Of a stretch of DNA of 64,000 nucleotides, positions 1 to 40,704 are shown one piece after another. The notes under the pieces were generated by a model. The model was not told where the DNA came from, ran no database searches, and worked only from the letters and a program-made list of their open reading frames with translations. The position numbers were made by a program, and so were the translations under genes. This DNA comes from Spirochaetota bacterium (lineage in GTDB: Bacteria > Spirochaetota > UBA4802 > JAFGDQ01), in NCBI GenBank assembly GCA_043803405.1, contig JAZDKB010000019.1, forward strand, positions 304,338-368,337, in the 5' to 3' direction. The stretch's first letter is position 1. Every line of letters begins with the position of its first letter.

Positions 1-1451
1 ATTTACTAAAAAAGATCGGTTTGGTAACCGGCGAGAAAGGAGAGAATCAGGAAAAGACAAAGCTGATTTTCGATAGAAAATTTTTTAAAACATACAGCGG
101 CATCAAAGAAATACCAAAGGAAGACGGCAGTATGGAAGTAGCTCAGGACGGCAATTCAATTAAGATTGAGGGAATTCTTTGGAGAGAATATGAACTTCCA
201 ATAGCCGCACCAATAAAAAAAGATACGGTACTTGAATTAAATATCGATTATCAGAAGGAAGTTGTTGAAGAGGATACCACTCCGTATCGCGTGGAAATCG
301 GGCCGGCTGAGGAAGTAACCATTAAAGGTATAAAGCTGAAAGGTTATAATGTTTCCAGGATCAGGCAGATTGAGAAATCGGATGATAAAAAGAAAACTCC
401 TGATGTGCTTGGTATCGGTGTTGTCGTAATGGAGAATGATAAACGAACGGAAAAAATATATGAACGCGGGCCGGACGTTAAAGGGAAGCAGATTCTTCCT
501 GTAGGCAATGATTTTGACGGTAAGACAATATCAAAAATTATTTTTTACTGCAACGAGGGAGCTGCTAAATTTTCGGCCGCAAATATTCTGACTCCTCTAA
601 AAGGAACAGGAATTCTGGAAGCAAAGAACGTGATTAAAAATGCTGCGGATGCAAAAATTGAGATCGATGGCGTTGAAATAGTCAGGGATAAAAATAATAA
701 TTTGAATGATGTTATTAAAGGCGTTGATTTAAATTTAAAGAGAAGTTCTGCTGATCCTGTAACAATAACAATTGAGCCCGATATCGATAAAGCCATTGAT
801 AAGATAAAAAAATTCGTAAAAGCTTATAATGACTATCTGGATTTAAATATAAAACTAACAAAAACAGCTAAGATTTTGAAACCGGATAATTTTGCAAAGT
901 CAAAAGATGAAATGGGTCTATTTATCGGGGATATGACGATTTTAAGGCTGGAAAATTCTTTAAAGACCGCTGTCGGCGAATCTTATCCGTCAAGACTTGA
1001 TAATCCGATCAGGATACTTGTGCAAACCGGAGTGTCTACAGGCGCAATTAATTCTGAGTGGGAATCAATTAAAGAAGGCAAACTTGTAGTTGACGAGACA
1101 AAACTGCGGACCACAATTGACGCAAATCCTGAGGGCATAACAGAATTCTTCGGATCAGATACGGACGGTGATAACAGAATAGATAACGGCATGGCCTTCA
1201 GGGTTGAGAGCCTGCTAAAACCGTACATAATGTCGGGCAGAAGCGTCATTGCCGCCAAGGTCGATCAGGAAAATGAATCGATAAAAAGCGTGGATAGCAG
1301 AATAGACAGACATAAAGAGCACTTAAAAAAATACGAGGAAAAGCTTAGAACTAAATTTGCTTCTATGGAAAAATCCGTTTCGGATTCCAAAGCACAGGGC
1401 AGTTGGATGAAGATGAACCTGGGCATTCAGGATTCTGACGGTAAAAAATAA
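1..1451 (+). CDS. fliD: Flagellar filament cap protein FliD (hook-associated protein 2). The 5' end is cut off by the window edge; the ORF track reports it from a TTG at 21, but the frame is open back to base 3.
   Basis: The central region IKGVDLNLKRSSADPVTITIEPDIDKAIDKIKKFVKAYNDYLDL and the C-terminal coiled-coil KKYEEKLRTKFASMEKSV match the conserved FliD central and C-terminal domains. There is no N-terminal FliD motif, which is consistent with truncation. Confidence 0.75.
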   Translation, partial: LLKKIGLVTGEKGENQEKTKLIFDRKFFKTYSGIKEIPKEDGSMEVAQDGNSIKIEGILWREYELPIAAPIKKDTVLELNIDYQKEVVEEDTTPYRVEIGPAEEVTIKGIKLKGYNVSRIRQIEKSDDKKKTPDVLGIGVVVMENDKRTEKIYERGPDVKGKQILPVGNDFDGKTISKIIFYCNEGAAKFSAANILTPLKGTGILEAKNVIKNAADAKIEIDGVEIVRDKNNNLNDVIKGVDLNLKRSSADPVTITIEPDIDKAIDKIKKFVKAYNDYLDLNIKLTKTAKILKPDNFAKSKDEMGLFIGDMTILRLENSLKTAVGESYPSRLDNPIRILVQTGVSTGAINSEWESIKEGKLVVDETKLRTTIDANPEGITEFFGSDTDGDNRIDNGMAFRVESLLKPYIMSGRSVIAAKVDQENESIKSVDSRIDRHKEHLKKYEEKLRTKFASMEKSVSDSKAQGSWMKMNLGIQDSDGKK

Positions 1452-11851: not shown

Positions 11852-12853
11852 ATGCTGCCTGCTTCTTTCCCATATTGTTTTGCGCCAATGGATAATCTGA
11901 GCAACCCTGTGCTCAGAAATTTGATTGCCGCTACACTGCCGACCGGAACGCAGATGGCCTTTTTTAGCCCTGCAATTAATCCCAATTCAGTCCTGAGCAA
12001 AAGACCCAATTTGAAAGAAAATCTGCCGATTAATCCGGGTGAAATTCTATATTACAACATGATGCACGGCGACCCGGATATTATACTTGCCGGAATGGAA
12101 AAAATGCTCGAGCTAAATCCCGCTGGATTTAACCTGAACTGCGGCTGTCCAAGGTCAAAAATCCAGAAAAAAGGGAAGTGTCCCATAGGCGTTGCACTGA
12201 TGGATCATCCTGCGCAGGTCGCAGCTATTGTAAAGGCAGCGAAAAAGACATTCCCGTCTGTTCATTTCAGCATCAAGATCAGGGCCGGCGTGCGGCACAA
12301 CCTGCCGGCGCTCTATGACTTTTGCAGGCAGGCTGAAGATGCCGGATGCGACGCAATTATTTTTCATGCCCGTTCCGCTGAAGACCAGTTCAAAAGGCCT
12401 GCACGGCACACCATGTTCGGCGAGTTGAAGCAGCGTCTGGGCGTTCCGCTGATAGGTAACGGAGATATTATTACGGATGAACAGGCTGTTGCTGTGAAAG
12501 AGAAATACGGGCTTGATGGCGTAATGATAGGCAGGGGCGCTCTGCTTACTCCAGGCATATTCCGGGCAATTGCATACAGGCTGGCCGGAAAACCGCTTAG
12601 CCATCCTGTCATGTCGTGGACAGAAAAAAGGGATTTCCTGATGTGGTTTGTTCAGGCTACGGAAATTAAATTCGGAACAGCCGTTATGCTTCGCAGAACC
12701 AGGCTGTTTGCCCGCTGGCTGTGTCAGGGCCTGGAATCCGGGCTAGCGCTTGACGGCAATCTCCACAAAGCAAAAACTTTGGAAGATACGCTTGCAACAA
12801 TTAATAAATTTTTTGAAAAGCCCAGAAGGCAGTACACAGATGTGATTTTATAA
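11852..12853 (+). CDS. dus: tRNA-dihydrouridine synthase (Dus family). The start is reassigned to 11852 (MLPASF...) because the track start at 11729 lies upstream of the terminator.
   Basis: Dus motifs LNCGCP (catalytic Cys), IKIRAG, GNGDI. The terminator at 11764-11796 sits inside the track's 5' extension. Confidence 0.75.
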   Translation: MLPASFPYCFAPMDNLSNPVLRNLIAATLPTGTQMAFFSPAINPNSVLSKRPNLKENLPINPGEILYYNMMHGDPDIILAGMEKMLELNPAGFNLNCGCPRSKIQKKGKCPIGVALMDHPAQVAAIVKAAKKTFPSVHFSIKIRAGVRHNLPALYDFCRQAEDAGCDAIIFHARSAEDQFKRPARHTMFGELKQRLGVPLIGNGDIITDEQAVAVKEKYGLDGVMIGRGALLTPGIFRAIAYRLAGKPLSHPVMSWTEKRDFLMWFVQATEIKFGTAVMLRRTRLFARWLCQGLESGLALDGNLHKAKTLEDTLATINKFFEKPRRQYTDVIL

Positions 12854-12998
12854 TCCTTCCATAATTATTTTTCAGCAGGATTGTTTTTTTGCTATAATAA
12901 AAATATTAATCTGTGCATTCTTTCCGGACATTGCATGCAGAACTTCATCAAAATATATAATATACTTATTCAATTTGACTGATTTTTTTTACTTTCAA

Positions 12999-13112
12999 GA
13001 TAAATGTCATAGTAATTATCAATTTTAAGGCGGCAGGATGCCGCCGCTAGCCGCTTCTTACAGGATGTATGCATTAGCGGCGAGAAAATTGATGATTACT
13101 ATGACATTTATC
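12999..13112. repeat. 114-bp element with 28-bp AT-rich inverted-repeat arms (GATAAATGTCATAGTAATTATCAATTTT / AAAATTGATGATTACTATGACATTTATC). The arms flank a GC-rich core with mutually exclusive hairpins (GGCGGC-aggat-GCCGCC versus CGCCGCTAG...TTAGCGGCG).
   Basis: Read directly. It begins at the -10 of a TTGACT-N17-GATAAA promoter-like site (12975-13004) and ends 41 bp before the kinase gene start. Confidence 0.7.
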
Positions 13113-13153
13113 CATAAGTTAACTTTAATATTACATAAAAAAAGTCAGCCAAG

Positions 13154-14191
13154 ATGAGTTATTTAATAATAATATTCGATAATATTAATATGTTTGCCGA
13201 CTATCAAATACATAATTTCATAAAAAGTTCAACCGGCGAATCCTATGAGGTCTCAAAGCTAAAGGGAGACGCGTCTGCCAGAGAATATTACAGGATCAAT
13301 TCCGGCAATAAAAGTTATATGCTCTGCATAGATAATAATTTGAAGGGAATTACCCCGGAACAATACGCGTTCTGCATTGTGCATAATTTATTAAGGAAGA
13401 ACGGGATTCCTGTCCCGGATATTTACTCTATTGATGAAAAAGCAGGATTGCTTCTCATCCAGGACCTGGGTGATTCTCTCATTGAGCAGAACTTTGAGAG
13501 CATGAGCAAAAGCGAACGCGCCGGGTTATACGGCGATCTTATCGACACAGTTGCAAAAATTCAATTCATTAGCGGCGATGAAAAAACTGTTCCATTCAGT
13601 TTGTCTTTCGACGTTCCAAAGCTAATGTACGAGTTTAATTTTTTTATTGATAACGCCCTTATCGGTTATTTTAAATCCGGTATATCGGGTGATCTTCTTG
13701 AAGAGCTTCGCAGCGAATTTAATAAGATATCCGTGATCCTGTATAAGCCCGAACTTTTTGTTCTGAATCACAGGGATCTTCATAGCAGAAATATAATGAT
13801 ACGCGACAGCAAACCATACCTGATTGACTTTCAGGACGCGAGGATGGGACTGCCGCAGTATGATGTGGTTTCTCTTTTGCGCGATTCATACCTGCGGATT
13901 GAAGACGGCCTTGTCGACAGTCTTAAAAAAAAGCATTTTAATATCCTGAAAGCGAGAGGTTACAGCCGTATGGAGTACGACGAATACGAATATTATTTTG
14001 ATATCATGGCCTTTCAGAGAAATGTAAAGGCACTCGGAACCTTCGGTTACCAGGTTACAACATTGGGAAAGAATCTTTATCAAAGATATATTATGCCAAC
14101 TATGGCGTATTTGAAGGATTATATTAAAAGAAGAAGCGACCTATCCGGGGCCGCAGGAATTCTAAAAAGATTTATAGAGGTGGACTGGTGA
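13154..14191 (+). CDS. APH-fold (aminoglycoside phosphotransferase-like) small-molecule kinase. Candidates are an anomeric MurNAc/GlcNAc kinase of AmgK type or a LicA-like kinase.
   Basis: KLKGDASAREYYRI nucleotide-binding region. HRDLHSRNIMI catalytic loop (Brenner motif). IDFQDA metal-binding motif. Confidence 0.55.
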   Translation: MSYLIIIFDNINMFADYQIHNFIKSSTGESYEVSKLKGDASAREYYRINSGNKSYMLCIDNNLKGITPEQYAFCIVHNLLRKNGIPVPDIYSIDEKAGLLLIQDLGDSLIEQNFESMSKSERAGLYGDLIDTVAKIQFISGDEKTVPFSLSFDVPKLMYEFNFFIDNALIGYFKSGISGDLLEELRSEFNKISVILYKPELFVLNHRDLHSRNIMIRDSKPYLIDFQDARMGLPQYDVVSLLRDSYLRIEDGLVDSLKKKHFNILKARGYSRMEYDEYEYYFDIMAFQRNVKALGTFGYQVTTLGKNLYQRYIMPTMAYLKDYIKRRSDLSGAAGILKRFIEVDW

Positions 14192-33654: not shown

Positions 33655-33825
33655 GACATGCCTCTTGGTCTGACCTGGTTACGGGAAATACTATGTGTGA
33701 TGCAATTTACATAAACGTTTTTTTGTTCAAAGTCAATTGTTTTTTCAGTTGCTCCCTGCTGCTCCCGGTGTAGAATTATATATTATTCGGACTTTTCAAG
33801 TCTTCGTTATTTCGGTTAATGGAAT

Positions 33826-33921
33826 GTCATTTCGAACCCTGCGCATCCCGAACGAAGTCGGAGGAAAGCAGGGTGAGAAATCTACTTTACTTGAGATTTT
33901 TCCCTTCGGTCAGAATGACAC
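33826..33921 (+). repeat. Structured dispersed repeat, copy A (GTCATTTCGAAC ... GTGAGAAATCT-loop-AGATTTTTC ... CCTTCGG ... AATGAC)
   Basis: It shares the 12-mer GTCATTTCGAAC, the 11-mer GTGAGAAATCT, the 9-mer AGATTTTTC and a CCTTCG block, in the same order and orientation, with copy B at 37044-37122. Confidence 0.65.
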
Positions 33922-34136
33922 TATTTATTATTAATATATCAGTTGTTAATTCGCAGTTCTACTATTAGGACATCCCCTTAAAATTGATAATTATTGTCGC
34001 GGTATATGCATTTAAACAGGTTTTGAGATGCACTCTATTTAATTTTTTTATAGACATGTAAAATAATATATCTATAGTTTTGAAATTCGCCTAAGCATTA
34101 GCAGGTTATAATTAAAAATTCCAAGGAGGATCTTAT

Positions 34137-34796
34137 ATGATTTTTAAATTTAAAAGGTCATTTTTATTTTTAACAGCTCTCTCTCTTTTCGTTTTTTCAA
34201 TCGGATGTTCAACACTGGAAGTAAGCGTTCAGAAGGCATCACCCAAACTTCAGAAAGATGCAAAAATAGCATATTTTAAAACCCCGTTTTGCGATATGGA
34301 TTTACCGATTTTTCCTTTAATTGATGCAGGTATATTAAGAAGCAAAATAAATGATAATATTTCCAAATTTAAGGAAGCTGATAAAACCTCTGAAGGCAAA
34401 ATGGCAGATTTTGCCATAAAATGCATTAAGGAAAAAATCGGAAATCAGTCAGTCATTACAGGAACCCCTATTGATGCGAATGATTTTAATATTATGGATA
34501 ATATCAATTCAAAGATCGAAGCAAAAATTGCCGAAGAATGTCAAAAGGCCAATGCTGCGTATGCCTATATTCCGATTAGTAGAATGAAAGTAAAAAATGT
34601 TTATAATTACGTTGGAGGAATAACATACTTTGAGACAAAGATTTATGTCTGCGATAAGAACGGAAAAATAATCGGCCAGGGATATGTTTCAACTGAGGCT
34701 TTATTAATGTATTCTGATGATTTAAATACATATCAGCTCCTCATTAAAAACAGCGAACCGCTTATAAAGCAGCTTATAGGCCAGATGTTTCAGTAA
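34137..34796 (+). CDS. Lipoprotein, function unknown
   Basis: Lipobox FSIGCS after the signal peptide. A strong aaggagg RBS. Confidence 0.6.
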   Translation: MIFKFKRSFLFLTALSLFVFSIGCSTLEVSVQKASPKLQKDAKIAYFKTPFCDMDLPIFPLIDAGILRSKINDNISKFKEADKTSEGKMADFAIKCIKEKIGNQSVITGTPIDANDFNIMDNINSKIEAKIAEECQKANAAYAYIPISRMKVKNVYNYVGGITYFETKIYVCDKNGKIIGQGYVSTEALLMYSDDLNTYQLLIKNSEPLIKQLIGQMFQ

Positions 34797-34887
34797 GATA
34801 GTTAACACAAAATTTTAATAAACAAATAAGCAAGACCTGCTTTTAATCGGCAGGTCTTGTAATTTCAGTGACATCCTTTATATAAAA

Positions 34888-35337
34888 TTGCGGATTATGA
34901 CAGTTAAACTTATATTTTTATTTATAATAATAGCTTTTTCGTTTTCATTCAATTGCAGTGAAGATAAAGAAACGCACAAAGCGGTTGTTTCTTTTCAAAT
35001 ACAGAAAGAGAAGGAAATAAGCGAAAAGGATGCGGCATTGTATGCCGGTGAATATGACAAAATACAAAATTCTATGGAAAATATTATTAAAAATAATTTC
35101 AATAGTCCGGATAAAGCGGCAGAACTATTGATAAATCTCACAAAAAAGTCCGTTGTTTTAGGAAGGGAAATTTCGAATTGTTCTCAAAAAAGCAATAACA
35201 GAATACTTAAGCATTTAAAGAAAAAAGCAATCGATGATGATGTGTTGAAGAAAACAATGAAGATGTACAATGAAAATAAAAAATTTGCAAAAGCATATAA
35301 CAGCTTTGTGCAGTCATTCAGCAGAAGCGCCGAGTAG
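34888..35337 (+). CDS. Lipoprotein, function unknown
   Basis: Lipobox FSFNCS. Confidence 0.5.
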   Translation: MRIMTVKLIFLFIIIAFSFSFNCSEDKETHKAVVSFQIQKEKEISEKDAALYAGEYDKIQNSMENIIKNNFNSPDKAAELLINLTKKSVVLGREISNCSQKSNNRILKHLKKKAIDDDVLKKTMKMYNENKKFAKAYNSFVQSFSRSAE

Positions 35338-35357
35338 GTATCTCTTCAGTATCCACG

Positions 35358-35897
35358 TTAGCGGTGATGGCGATGCCTGTAATACGGGTAACTCCGGTAC
35401 GGGTAACCCCACCACGGATCATAAAAGGGATATGGCGTATCATAAAAGTATGTGTCTCTCCACAGGTAAATCTCTTTGCTTAGAACAACCGGATACCTGT
35501 AACCGACCTCTCCGATTTGTCTGATCTCTTCGCCAAGGATCTCACCGCCGACTGTAATTTTTCTGCCCTTTCTATAAGCGTACGGATCGAGAAATTTATC
35601 GGATTTAATCAGGAACCTCCCTTCCGATTCAGATGATAGATCGGGTGCGTCGTTTAAATCGAGCGGCTTCTGGTATACCTCAAGCAGGCTTGTGCCGTCC
35701 TGTTTGTTTACGCATTCAATGATCTCGCCGCCCCATACTACGGTCCGACCCTTGTGGGAACCGGCATCTCTGGCAATATCAAGAAAAGAAAGGGAAGGAT
35801 TTGTTCTGGATTTAATTTCCTGCGAAATTACTGTAGCGCATCCGAAAGGAAATGCAAAGATTATTATGATAAAGCTATATTTAAGTAAATTCTGCAT
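35358..35897 (-). CDS. slp: Slp-family outer-membrane lipoprotein
   Basis: Lipobox PFGCA. GRTVVWGGEI...LLEVYQKPLD...GRFLIKSDKFLDPYAYRKGRKITVGGEI...GYRYPVV matches the Slp/YeaY pattern. Confidence 0.7.
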   Translation of the reverse strand: MQNLLKYSFIIIIFAFPFGCATVISQEIKSRTNPSLSFLDIARDAGSHKGRTVVWGGEIIECVNKQDGTSLLEVYQKPLDLNDAPDLSSESEGRFLIKSDKFLDPYAYRKGRKITVGGEILGEEIRQIGEVGYRYPVVLSKEIYLWRDTYFYDTPYPFYDPWWGYPYRSYPYYRHRHHR

Positions 35898-36113
35898 TAC
35901 AAATACCCCGGCATGTTAAAGATATATGTATGATAAAAACTTTTTAATAAAATCATATTTAATCTCTTAGGGTTAAATTCCCCGCAGCTATGCTGTGAGG
36001 AGGATTCAATATGCGTGTCCTGTAACCTCTATAACGCAACAAACGAATTTAGTACAGCTTTTTATTTCAACGCCTTGAAACATAATATCCCGCAGATACT
36101 GTCAGGGGTATGT

Positions 36114-36140
36114 CCAATGTCATTACCTTAATGACATTGG
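36114..36140. promoter_or_regulatory. Perfect 12-3-12 palindrome CCAATGTCATTA-cct-TAATGACATTGG in the divergent slp / Ala-Lys-repeat-gene intergenic region. Operator-like.
   Basis: Read directly. The AATGTCAT core also occurs in the arms of the 12999-13112 element and in repeat copy A. Confidence 0.5.
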
Positions 36141-36194
36141 GGGCTTGCCACTGGGAATTTTATTTGAATTAGATGAGCTTTCTAAAACCGCAAA

Positions 36195-36228
36195 AAATCC
36201 AATTGACTTTTTAAATTCCTTTTATCAA
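36195..36228 (+). promoter_or_regulatory. Second copy of the promoter-like motif AAAATCCAATTGACTTTTTAAATTCCTTTTATCAA, 47 bp upstream of the Ala/Lys-repeat gene
   Basis: 30 of 33 nt identical to 10427-10460. Confidence 0.5.
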
Positions 36229-36274
36229 TATTTCTCCCAATCAATCTTAATACTTTATTTTACAGGAGTATCAC

Positions 36275-37000
36275 ATGTTATTACGCAACCTTAGCCGCTA
36301 TTTTATTATTTCCGTGTTTGCGCTCTCATTTATATTCACCGGACAACAATTCTCTTTTTCGCAGGGAACAGCGCCCGCGAAAACGAAGGCAGTGGAAACG
36401 CCTGCCGCGGCTGCTGTAAAGACCGCTGCCGTACCCACTGACGCCGACCTTCAGGCGGATGCGGACGCAAAGGCGAAAGCCGCTGCCGAAGCTAAAGCCG
36501 ATTACGATGCGAAAGCGAAAATTACTGCGGATTCCAAAGCGGATTACGATGCAAAAGCAAAAGTAGCTGCTGCTGCGAAAGCGGATTACGAAGCAAAAGC
36601 GAAAATTTCCGGCAAGGCAAAAGCCGACTTTAACGCAAAATCAAGATCAGCAGATGATGCTAAACTGAAGATTACCGCCAGGGCAAAAGCAAAGACCGCT
36701 GCCGAAGCGAAAGAAAAAGCTGCAATCGCTGCAAAGGCAAAAGCCGAAGAGAACGCAAAGAAAAAAGCGGAGGCCGACGCAAAGAGAAAGGCTGCCGCAG
36801 AAGCCAGGAAAAAAGCTGAAGAAGAAGCGAAAGTAAAAGCAGACGCAGCGGCAAAGGCTAAAGCCGAAGCTAAAAAGAAAGCAGCCGAAGAAGCAAAAGC
36901 CAAAGCCGAGGCTGCGGCAAAGGCTAAAGCCGACGCGGATGCAAAGAAGAAAGCGGATGCAGACGCAAAGATAAAAACAGAGCCGGAGCCAAAGAAATAA
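36275..37000 (+). CDS. Secreted Ala/Lys/Asp/Glu-rich low-complexity repeat protein (TolA-central-domain-like). GC-richer than the flanking DNA.
   Basis: Signal peptide, then repeats AKAKADYDAKAK / KKKAEADAKRKAAAEA. The antisense ORFs over it are artefacts. Confidence 0.6.
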   Translation: MLLRNLSRYFIISVFALSFIFTGQQFSFSQGTAPAKTKAVETPAAAAVKTAAVPTDADLQADADAKAKAAAEAKADYDAKAKITADSKADYDAKAKVAAAAKADYEAKAKISGKAKADFNAKSRSADDAKLKITARAKAKTAAEAKEKAAIAAKAKAEENAKKKAEADAKRKAAAEARKKAEEEAKVKADAAAKAKAEAKKKAAEEAKAKAEAAAKAKADADAKKKADADAKIKTEPEPKK

Positions 37001-37043
37001 CCGGACAAAAAGCATGGGCAGTTTAAGTAATGATTAGTATAGA

Positions 37044-37122
37044 GTCATTTCGAACGAATGTGAGAAATCTCCTGATTAAGTGTAAAAATAGATTTTTCAG
37101 CCCCTATCGTTCCTTCGAAATG
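37044..37122 (+). repeat. Structured dispersed repeat, copy B. Outer stem CATTTCGAACGA / TCGTTCCTTCGAAATG; inner hairpin GAGAAATCT / AGATTTTTC.
   Basis: See copy A. It lies between the repeat-protein stop (37000) and the next gene start (37201). Confidence 0.65.
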
Positions 37123-37200
37123 CTAATTCAATCGTAAACTGTCATAGTATCACAATTCAAAAAACATAATTTTCAATTTTGAACCAAGAGATCACCTTGT

Positions 37201-39354: not shown

Positions 39355-40704
39355 TTAAAAGTGGTCAGGATATTCCCAGTAATAATGAGAATTCCTCCAT
39401 CCTTTTTTATAACTTTTGTTGTATTTGCAGACAGATACAAAATTGGTCAAATTTTTAAGGCTAAATAGTGATTTAACCAAACGATACTGATATGTTGGAA
39501 AAGAGTAAATGTGTTTTTTTATATAATTGCACCCAATATATATAGTGTCCAGATTTGTTCCTTTTGGTTGATGAACCACATAAGAAAATCTGTACTTGTC
39601 CCAGTCTTCTGGAAAATTTTTGTGGATGAGACGGTCTTCCGCTACCAGTTGATCCATTAACCCTGTCCCTGGAAGTGGAGTCAACATTGTAATCTGAATA
39701 ATGTCCACTCCCAAATCGACAAGAAAGTCGGCAAATTCTTTATAATAAAATGACGATTCGTAATCGTTTCCGATAATAAATGCCCCTAATACAGCTATTC
39801 CGTATTTGTGGAAAGCATCTATAACTCTTTTGTAGTTTTCTATCCCTACCTTAAGATTAATCCCTTTTCGCATGTTTTTGAGCATTTCAGCCTTCATTGT
39901 CTCAAAACCGATAAAAACGAACATGCAGCCGGATTGTGCTGCCAATTCGATTATACGTTCATTCGTACTGGCATTGATTGAAGTCTGCATCCACCATTTT
40001 TTTCTGATATTCCTGCCCAGCATTCCCTCGAGCAGTTTGATGGCTCTCTTGTAATTTTCTTCACTATAACCTATAAGATTGTCATCGACAAAAGTAAAGT
40101 ACTTGCCCTTGATCCCTTCCAACTCATTGAGGACAGAGTCAATGTTTCTCTGGCGAAATTTCTGTCCAAGATACCTCGATACTGAACAAAAATGGCAGTC
40201 AAAGGGGCAACCCCGGGAAGTTTGAACGGAATGCCAGAAATAGGCTGGATGGAGCAGGTCATGTCTCGGATTGATATTAACTTCGGATAAATTCAGTTGC
40301 GGCCCTAAGTATCTGTCTGCCAGTGTATTGTTTTCGAGATCATCTATAACCTGTCCCCAGATGCCTTCCGCTTCACCAACCAATACACTGTCAGCGTATT
40401 GAAGGATTTCATCGGGAAGCATGGAGGCATGAATGCCACCCATGATGACCTTGATATTTCTTGCACGATATAATCCTGCAATTTCATAGGCACGGGTTAT
40501 GTTGCTGGTAAAGGCAGTTATGCCAACCAGATCGGCTTCTTCGAATTCAAATTTGTCGAAGTTTTCATCAATTATTTTTATTTCCCAGTTATCAGGTGTC
40601 ACAGCCGCAACACAGGCAAGACTCAATGGCGGGAATGTGGCAGATCTGCTGAGAAGAATACCGCTTCTGCGGCCTACCGGGTTTATCAACAACAGTTTTT
40701 TCAT
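39355..40704 (-). CDS. B12-binding-domain radical SAM protein (class B)
   Basis: N-terminal cobalamin-binding Rossmann region (VGITAFTSNITRAY...VIMGGIHAS). CPFDCHFC, a CxxxCxxC radical SAM cluster motif. Confidence 0.85.
   Translation of the reverse strand: MKKLLLINPVGRRSGILLSRSATFPPLSLACVAAVTPDNWEIKIIDENFDKFEFEEADLVGITAFTSNITRAYEIAGLYRARNIKVIMGGIHASMLPDEILQYADSVLVGEAEGIWGQVIDDLENNTLADRYLGPQLNLSEVNINPRHDLLHPAYFWHSVQTSRGCPFDCHFCSVSRYLGQKFRQRNIDSVLNELEGIKGKYFTFVDDNLIGYSEENYKRAIKLLEGMLGRNIRKKWWMQTSINASTNERIIELAAQSGCMFVFIGFETMKAEMLKNMRKGINLKVGIENYKRVIDAFHKYGIAVLGAFIIGNDYESSFYYKEFADFLVDLGVDIIQITMLTPLPGTGLMDQLVAEDRLIHKNFPEDWDKYRFSYVVHQPKGTNLDTIYIGCNYIKKHIYSFPTYQYRLVKSLFSLKNLTNFVSVCKYNKSYKKGWRNSHYYWEYPDHF

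Follow-up and report, generated by a model that had tools for sequence, protein, structure and literature searches.

Repetitive extragenic palindromes (REPs) carrying the tetranucleotide tag CGTC were described as a super-family by Di Nocera, De Gregorio & Rocco (2013, BMC Genomics 14:522; PMC3733652), with the following features. The tag is CGTC, often TGTC; the stems comprise 8-9 positions starting with AT, G-T pairs are frequent, the loop measures 4-5 nucleotides (nt), and most, though not all, of the 3-nt tails fit CCA. The repeats are multi-copy, dispersed, mostly intergenic near the ends of genes, and not flanked by transposase genes, and head-head dimers, in which the tags lie outside, predominate, as homodimers or, commonly, heterodimers with variable and sometimes structured spacers. 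The hosts given are Proteobacteria, Chlorobi, Bacteroidetes (Gramella forsetii), Spirochaetes (Turneriella parva), and Thermotogae, and Neisseria dRS3 and Rickettsia RPE-4 and RPE-6 are counted as members. A later survey of Y1/HUH enzymes assigned no enzyme to CGTC REPs. The present analysis concerns two copies, A and B, of a structured repeat of 80-95 nt in a 64,000-nt stretch of a Spirochaetota bacterium (assembly GCA_043803405.1, contig JAZDKB010000019.1, positions 304,338 to 368,337 of the forward strand), hereafter called the window. Each of these repeats is very probably a head-head dimer of a (C/T)GTC-tagged REP.

The original prediction had placed two structured repeats at 33826-33921 and 37044-37122, and reading of the sequence confirmed them there, on the + strand, together with their shared blocks; the full elements span 33825-33920 and 37043-37125 once the T of TGTC and a degenerate 3' tag are counted. 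Within the window, GTCATTTCGAAC occurs exactly only at 33826 and 37044, and the core GTGAGAAATCT-N(3-30)-AGATTTTTC has just two matches, at 33873-33902 and 37060-37098, with 0 matches in 100 dinucleotide-preserving shuffles. RNA and DNA folding returned the outer stem and inner hairpin described for both copies, with RNA minimum free energies of -33.5 kcal/mol for copy A and -21.7 kcal/mol for copy B (z = -2.9 and -4.1) and DNA fold energies of -16.3 and -11.3 kcal/mol (z = -2.6 and -3.7). The extra hairpin attributed to copy A is present as well (ACCCTGC...GCAGGGT, 33836-33874). The proposed shared CCTTCG block stands only in part: the string is found in both copies, but the registers differ, since in copy A it spans the apical stem-loop of the right unit (CC-TTC-GG) and in copy B it straddles the loop end, a 2-bp stem, TC, and the first G of GAAAT, so that the homology is partial.

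The repeated unit is each arm of about 26-27 nt, not the whole 80-95-nt element. A unit consists of an unpaired YGTC tag, a 5-bp stem (stem1) ATTTC/GAAAT in which three covarying pairs follow AT, a tandem GA facing GA, a variable apical stem of 2-7 bp (AC/GT, GC/GC, and CC/GG, among others) that ends in a GAA-type triloop or a larger insertion, and a C-T tail. The tandem GA/GA mismatch is imposed by the search, as the frames used for collecting units fixed AT, GA..GA, and AT, and the invariance of AT and GA is for this reason not independent evidence. Examples are TGTC-ATTCT-GA-AC-GGA-GT-GA-AGAAT-CT in L023 and CGTC-ATTGC-...-GCAAT-CTC in L011 and L077 (L numbers denote loci or contig stretches examined besides the window). 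Among 93 distinct units the tag is TGTC in 73, CGTC in 14, AGTC in four, and GGTC in two. The dimer is formed by two inverted units with the tags outside and a spacer between the tails whose sequence is variable within the family and whose length ranges from about 5 to 30 nt or more; being built of two inverted units, the whole dimer can also fold into the long hairpin seen earlier. Heterodimers are present in L137, L074, and L111. In the extra copies outside the pattern selection, changes in one arm are matched in the other, and each arm forms a small palindrome on its own.

The covariation analysis proposed for the stems supported the unit hairpin. Stem1 is fully paired in 25 of 27 distinct units whose pairing was not forced by the pattern, against a mean of 10.0 and a maximum of 15 of 27 when partners were shuffled (2000 trials), and the apical stem pairs in 16 of the 27, against 10.1 after shuffling. 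When 66 distinct 26-nt units were aligned without gaps, pairing was seen in 92.0% of cells (80.9% shuffled) and double changes in 60 cells (16.1 shuffled), and the covariation score was 0.341 (0.142 shuffled), the observed values being reached in 0 of 500 shuffles in each case; sliding the partners reduced pairing to at most 59%. All these covariation statistics were obtained on related sequences. Within one arm, the covarying pairs of stem1 include TTC/GAA, TCC/GGA, CTC/GAG, TCT/AGA, CCC/GGG, and GCT/AGC, together with TGC/GCA in L011 and L077, and the corresponding stem variants are ATTCC/GGAAT in L111, ATCTC/GAGAT and ATCCC/GGGAT in viral contigs, and ATTCCCGC/GCGGGAAT in L108. The middle helix at the level of the dimer also carries compensatory changes (CGGA/TCCG, CCGCAG/CTGCGG, GGCA/TGCC).

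A search for the module beyond the window had been suggested, and it returned many further copies. The scan of one genome per species (GTDB representatives) with the inner-hairpin pattern gave at least 120 stretches; among the 120 matches listed, 45 carry the outer arms GTCATTTCGAA...TTCGAAATGAC on both sides and 17 more carry one outer arm only, and the others have unrelated flanks and look like chance matches in AT-rich DNA. The dimer covariance model (R1) recovered the copies of the 45-type and, in the same 8-kb loci, further ones missed by the pattern. There are 3-6 units in several loci. By record title, the carriers among the matches listed belong to at least 10 phyla: they include many Bacteroidota, Ignavibacteria, and Spirochaetes, metagenome-assembled genomes (MAGs) of Desulfobacterota type, Nitrospirae, Deferribacteres, Chloroflexota (Chloroflexia and Anaerolineae), Goldbacteria, KSB1, bacteria of candidate phyla (Paceibacteria and Parcubacteria), and a few MAGs labelled Proteobacteria. 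Identical 26-mers are found in Rikenellaceae, Tenacibaculum, Goldbacteria, Nitrospirae, and one viral contig. A literature search with the DNA strings of the repeat returned primers only.

The unit pattern also occurs in 37 IMG/VR stretches, several of them with multiple copies, among which L137 holds 13 units in 13.8 kb. According to Pfam, L128, L129, L134, L137, and L162 encode portal, terminase, capsid, and tail proteins. In tailed-phage genomes (L137, L160, L129, L134, L162, and L128) multiple REP units lie between structural genes. The collinear phages L137 and L160, with about 80% nucleotide identity, have REPs in common at three orthologous gaps and differ at two, and a tandem duplication of a dimer with its spacer is seen in L137 (12597-12760). 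After the C of the tail, units from viral contigs continue with TTA (18), TTT (15), or TAT (9). Searches of cultured phages and of PLSDB plasmids gave no credible match. The family is thus dispersed and intergenic, it occurs in many phyla and in phages, its occupancy varies between related genomes, and no linked enzyme was found, as described next. The alternative that the original prediction had offered under the name of REP-like elements or miniature inverted-repeat transposable elements (MITEs) is accordingly upheld, in the form of a dispersed palindromic family matching CGTC/TGTC head-head dimers.

Of 47 copies whose surroundings were analysed, 45 lie between long open reading frames (ORFs), many of them 4-30 nt from an ORF end. 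The genes next to them have no relation to one another and are housekeeping or phage structural genes, such as those for ribosomal protein L31, DsrE, transaldolase, and phage tail proteins. Neither Y1 nor other transposases, nor any recurrent nuclease, appeared among the families listed (25 of 63) for 124 neighbouring ORFs. The search for genes flanked by units on both sides ('REPtrons') gave four unrelated ORFs, none of them a transposase. As a candidate cognate enzyme, RAYT/IS200 was rejected: tblastn with RAYT and IS200 queries found one genuine RAYT-like gene, in L110, and it is flanked by another REP. This gene (251-781, minus strand; Pfam Y1_Tnp, 2.2e-6; motifs NHFH, WQ, and YIHNNP) bears on both sides arrays of the different REP CTTCCCAA-N7-TTGGGAAG (L110 1-900), and the MAG concerned is copy-rich, with many CGTC-type units besides the RAYT-linked REP. 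Small GIY-YIG nuclease genes, which we had presumed often to end in these repeats, were dropped from consideration when tblastn with two GIY-YIG queries found none in the 120 loci or the window.

At the level of the window, the unit covariance model (R2) identified exactly four units, that is, two dimers and no singletons, and R1 found only the two copies. The parts of both are collected in Table 1. The right unit of copy A is the best preserved in the window (R2 39.7 bits, E = 7.7e-08, 33895-33920, minus strand), followed in score by the left unit of copy B, whose first tag base is A rather than C or T (32.3 bits, E = 6.1e-06, 37043-37069). The left unit of copy A aligns weakly to R2, over the tag and 5' stem only (33825-33859, 12.5 bits, E = 0.7), because of its 25-nt apical insertion, and R1 aligns 33919-33843 on the minus strand, taking the CATCCCGAACGAAGTC segment nested there as the second arm. 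The ATCCC/GGGAT variant with which this fragment may be compared is present in L001, L137, and L160. In the right unit of copy B (R2 14.5 bits, E = 0.22, 37091-37122, minus strand) the tag has changed from GTC to AGC, leaving an outer GCTA instead of GACA, and the apical part is enlarged; R1 nevertheless scores the whole of copy B at 47.7 bits (E = 4.6e-09). Both window copies are slightly decayed heterodimers, as judged by the nested unit fragment of copy A and the mutated outer tag of copy B.

Table 1. Coordinates of the REP units and their parts in copies A and B (positions within the 64,000-nt window).
Feature	Position	Strand	Structure or sequence	Basis
Copy A, left REP unit	33825..33883	+		sequence; RNA/DNA folds
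Copy A, left unit, tag	33825-28		TGTC	
Copy A, left unit, stem1	33829-33 / 33877-81		ATTTC / GAAAT	
Copy A, left unit, GA opposite GA	33834-35 / 33875-76		GA / GA	
Copy A, left unit, enlarged apical stem	33836-42 / 33868-74		ACCCTGC / GCAGGGT	
Copy A, left unit, tail	33882-83		CT	
Fragment of a further unit, nested in the 25-nt apical loop of the copy A left unit	33845..33860	+	CATCCCGAACGAAGTC; compare GTCATCCCGAAC variants	
Copy A, spacer separating the two tails	33884..33893	.	ACTTTACTTG	
Copy A, right REP unit	33894..33920	-	TGTC ATTCT GA CC GAA GG GA AAAAT CT	
Copy B, left REP unit	37043..37070	+	AGTC ATTTC GA AC GAAT GT GA GAAAT CT	
Copy B, spacer	37071..37089	.	CCTGATTAAGTGTAAAAAT	sequence
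Copy B, right REP unit, degenerate	37090..37125	-	TAGC ATTTC GA AG-GAACGATAGGGG-CT GA AAAAT CT	

The gene content that had been reported between the copies was found as described: three ORFs with a lipobox, one of which, on the minus strand, is Slp (Pfam Slp, 1.2e-43), and an Ala/Lys-repeat protein. The last of these (36275-37000) is a secreted, Ala/Lys-rich protein of 241 aa with repeats of AKAKADYDAKAK... and no Pfam match, and its gene has a GC content of about 0.50, compared with about 0.40 locally, and a strong A-over-T skew. Two ORFs of 65 aa and 49 aa (33737-33968) run through copy A, with translations such as ..MSFRT..GEKS..EIFPFGQND.., and they are typical of the spurious peptides that the REP family contributes to gene calls.

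Other explanations of the two elements were weighed against this background. The original prediction had allowed for a cis-acting RNA, whether a leader, a riboswitch-like element, or a small RNA, regulating the + strand genes 34137 and 37201, a role that we consider highly unlikely. It would suit the position of both copies on the same strand as the downstream genes and the stability of their RNA folds beyond that of shuffles. The conserved G-T wobbles (GAGAAATCT/AGATTTTTC), which can pair on the + strand only, also seem to speak for RNA; however, this asymmetry was imposed by the search pattern, and perfect symmetry is common among copies that the pattern did not select. Rfam 15 gave 0 matches at gathering thresholds over the whole window, and no family was recognised even at E <= 10, where the hits around both copies stayed at chance level (E >= 1.2, 9-18 bits). 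The orientation of the 47 copies relative to their flanking genes (15 same/same, 10 opposite/opposite, 8 convergent, 7 divergent) lacks the bias expected of a cis-acting RNA, and 10 copies are antisense to both neighbours. In addition, the genes downstream of copies are unrelated across the family, the two in the window have no function in common, and the orthologue of gene 37201 in L121 has no element upstream of it. The best promoter-like site for gene 34137, on weak evidence, lies downstream of copy A. No intrinsic terminator was called at either copy, where the 3' arms are followed by ACTATTTATT and TAATTCAATC, and hammerhead, twister, and other small ribozymes were dismissed on reading the sequence for their conserved cores, which are absent. 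A role as double-stranded DNA sites, in which inverted half-sites would be bound by a host nucleoid protein, gyrase, or a regulator, as in the bacterial interspersed mosaic elements of E. coli, is given an equally small probability. Sequence conservation far above structural need, with identical 26-mers across phyla, and inverted half-sites with a variable spacer would agree with it, and interactions of E. coli REPs with gyrase and with IHF are documented, as cited in PMC3733652. However, covariation within one arm is the signature of an intrastrand hairpin and not of a duplex recognition site, the tandem G-A opposite A-G in mid-stem, although fixed by the search, makes sense only in a folded single strand, and the spacers have the range of lengths given above. 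Moreover, the variation in occupancy between close relatives and the tandem dimer duplication suggest turnover rather than a fixed function.

The two elements could also be recombination scars or boundaries of an acquired 3.1-kb segment with the envelope genes (33.9-37.0 kb), inserted or rearranged when REP copies recombined or through the action of an enzyme on them; this is improbable, if slightly less so than the two roles just discussed. The closest relative of the DUF4139 gene, L122 (92% protein and 90.8% DNA identity), loses nucleotide homology at 33747, about 80 nt ahead of copy A. In L121, which among the relatives of gene 37201 is the one whose DNA was compared (81% protein identity), similarity starts, by eye, about 30 nt past copy B, and the sequence upstream of that point differs throughout; the final ~45 nt ahead of the ATG of the 37201 orthologue look conserved, again by eye, and synteny is kept downstream and lost upstream. 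The GC content of the two small lipoprotein genes is 0.30-0.34 and that of the Ala/Lys gene 0.49-0.52, against about 0.40-0.45 in the surroundings. REPs are known hot spots of recombination and insertion, which was also counted toward such boundaries. However, the homology with L122 is lost at the other end of the gene as well (31848), and L121 lacks the radical-SAM gene, which indicates that synteny is scrambled generally and not specifically at the repeats; the relatives examined are rearranged on all sides of the segment. No recombinase, integrase, or transposase match was obtained for nine ORFs scanned between 29258 and 40704, nor was an integrase or transposase present among the families listed (25 of 69) for 42 other ORFs of the window. 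The four bracketed genes are divided between the two strands, a GC-rich hairpin of its own follows the first lipoprotein gene, copies elsewhere are single and beside unrelated genes, and no target-site duplication is visible. The shared orientation of the two copies, which had been pointed out earlier, carries little meaning because the element is nearly palindromic. No copies were found in the relatives L122-L125, of which L123-L125 are more distant, and the absence of REPs beside orthologous genes in relatives shows that the elements are not conserved with their neighbouring genes. In L121 the B12-binding radical-SAM gene of the window (39355-40704) is absent from an otherwise syntenic region, and a gene for an MR_MLE-hydrolase fusion directly precedes the GAF histidine-kinase gene.

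The interpretation as REP dimers has to accommodate several observations that weigh against it. The 64-kb window holds just two dimers, both within 3.3 kb, and dispersal within the source genome is something that we infer from other genomes. An isolated unit hairpin is not favoured energetically (-1.9 to -2.7 kcal/mol, z ~0, nearest-neighbour); as the folding of a single unit is no better than that of shuffles, it is the covariation that argues for this hairpin, in units whose AT, GA..GA, and AT positions were set by the collection frames. Compared with CGTC REPs, the tail is C-T(T/A) and not CCA, and the fit of the stem is loose, with a GA/GA mismatch at positions 6-7 and a loop of 3 nt (5 with the closing pair). 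The likeness was established by the described features and not by the consensus of the families CGTC-1 to CGTC-4. The mobilising mechanism is entirely inferred. Finally, synteny with the two relatives breaks about 30-80 nt from the elements (33747 versus 33825 in L122; ~37155, by eye, versus 37125 in L121), which may leave room for a role in rearrangement.

With these points taken into account, the head-head REP dimer is still the reading that we favour with considerable confidence, and the window copies would be independent, partly decayed members of the REP population of the genome, presumably with no functional tie to the genes between them. By analogy with REP/RAYT systems and the ends of IS200-type elements, the units may act as single-strand hairpins, most plausibly as DNA at replication forks, where a putative trans-acting enzyme would recognise the tag and hairpin and copy or move the units. 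In single-stranded DNA, GAA triloops of the d(GCGAAGC) type and tandem sheared G-A pairs have an unusual stability, which fits a role as a DNA hairpin. Transcribed dimers may have the incidental effect of stabilising or punctuating adjacent mRNAs. Copy B lies 44 nt past the stop of the Ala/Lys-repeat gene and could possibly protect the 3' end of its mRNA; copy A probably has no local effect, as it lies upstream of the weakly supported promoter-like site of gene 34137.

The CGTC/TGTC-tagged family could further be a single, still-spreading pan-bacterial element and not an ancient relic, a proposal that we put forward tentatively and regard as rather doubtful. It is suggested by the near-identical 26-mers in at least 10 phyla, the sites among phage structural genes, and the differences in occupancy. 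The unit would then be a specialised mini-hairpin of single-stranded DNA, featuring a GAA triloop and sheared G-A pairs in tandem, recognised by a widely distributed putative enzyme, and phages could be the vectors. If this were true, finding the enzyme would answer the question raised in 2013 of how CGTC REPs multiply without a dedicated transposase. CGTC REPs have no known mobilising enzyme, and phylogenetic profiling of copy number against gene content could identify one, given how conserved and how widely spread this sub-family is, phages included. For annotation, the elements should be treated as REP-type repeats and not as riboswitch-like leaders, small RNAs, or cassette borders, and annotators should be aware that REP translations (CHFERSEKS- and ISPFGRND-like strings) give rise to spurious small ORFs. 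What remains of interest is the mobilising enzyme and a distribution that is unusually broad and near-identical, phages included.

Some other repeats were seen in the course of the analysis. In the window, a 100-nt inverted repeat at 13006-13105, GTCATAGTAATTATCAATTTT ... AAAATTGATGATTACTATGAC, with a GC-rich inner hairpin, occupies the intergenic gap 12853-13154; beyond its GTCAT/ATGAC ends it bears no relation to the REP unit (R1 20.5 bits, E = 0.019). About 135 nt upstream of the Ala/Lys-repeat gene, a perfect 12-bp palindrome with TGTCAT...ATGACA, CCAATGTCATTA-CCT-TAATGACATTGG (36114-36140), may represent a tag pair in minimal or remnant form, or else an operator. Algoriphagus spp. (L021:540-613, L048, L051, L055, and L103) carry, at a seemingly orthologous site, a hairpin with the core GTGAGAAATCT...AGATTTTTC and different outer arms, AAGTCAGAAGTATGAA...TTTTGATTTCTGACTT. 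Tandem heptamers GTCATTC or GTCATTG facing their reverse complements stand beside REP units in L074 (4050-4131) and L111 (2179-2471); they have GTCATT in common with the REP tag and stem and resemble the short tandem repeats of cyanobacteria. The MAG with heptamer arrays is labelled Hyphomicrobiales and may be mis-binned.

Comparison with other known systems places the family closest to the REPs. Integron attC sites are likewise imperfect palindromes of 60-140 nt with a variable centre that fold as single strands and bracket cassettes. They were rejected as a candidate: the RYYYAAC/GTTRRRY cores are absent (the ends read TTCGAAC/GTTCGAA, and GTTCGAA has C at the first R), none of the nine ORFs between 29258 and 40704 matched an integrase, the four genes lie on both strands, and copies elsewhere are solitary. 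With MITEs (Correia/NEMIS, ERIC, Nezha) the elements have in common that they are small, non-coding, intergenic, and foldable, with terminal inverted repeats and variable internal insertions at fixed positions. However, no target-site duplication was found in the 45 copies inspected, no parent insertion sequence with matching ends was detected in the loci examined, and each 'terminal repeat' is a covarying hairpin, the interior being just a 5-30-nt spacer. The resemblance to GTAG REPs and REPINs (RAYT, TnpA_REP) is greater, as these also consist of short inverted palindromic pairs that form a longer hairpin, are intergenic and patchy, and presumably function as single-strand hairpins in which a conserved tetranucleotide next to the stem stays unpaired. 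They differ in their tag, which is GTAG (GT[AG]G) and here YGTC, and no RAYT gene is flanked by the present units; in addition, the latter are near-identical across phyla, whereas RAYT-linked REPs are lineage-specific.

The greatest likeness is to the CGTC REPs. The tags of the window units are TGTC, TGTC, AGTC, and a degenerate TAGC (37122-25), all four units have stems that begin with AT...AT and comprise about nine positions, a looser correspondence in view of the mismatch and the short loop, and head-head dimers are seen in both window copies and in the 45 genome copies, with heterodimers among them. The units are also intergenic near gene ends and multi-copy, with G-T pairs in the stem, a short tail, and variable spacers, and they have no flanking transposase gene. 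Large apical insertions, which may replace the GAA-type loop, are a difference. The hosts include Bacteroidetes, groups of Chlorobi type, and Spirochaetes, as in the described super-family, and the range seen here is wider, extending to Paceibacteria, Parcubacteria, Goldbacteria, KSB1, Nitrospirae, Chloroflexota, and tailed-phage contigs.

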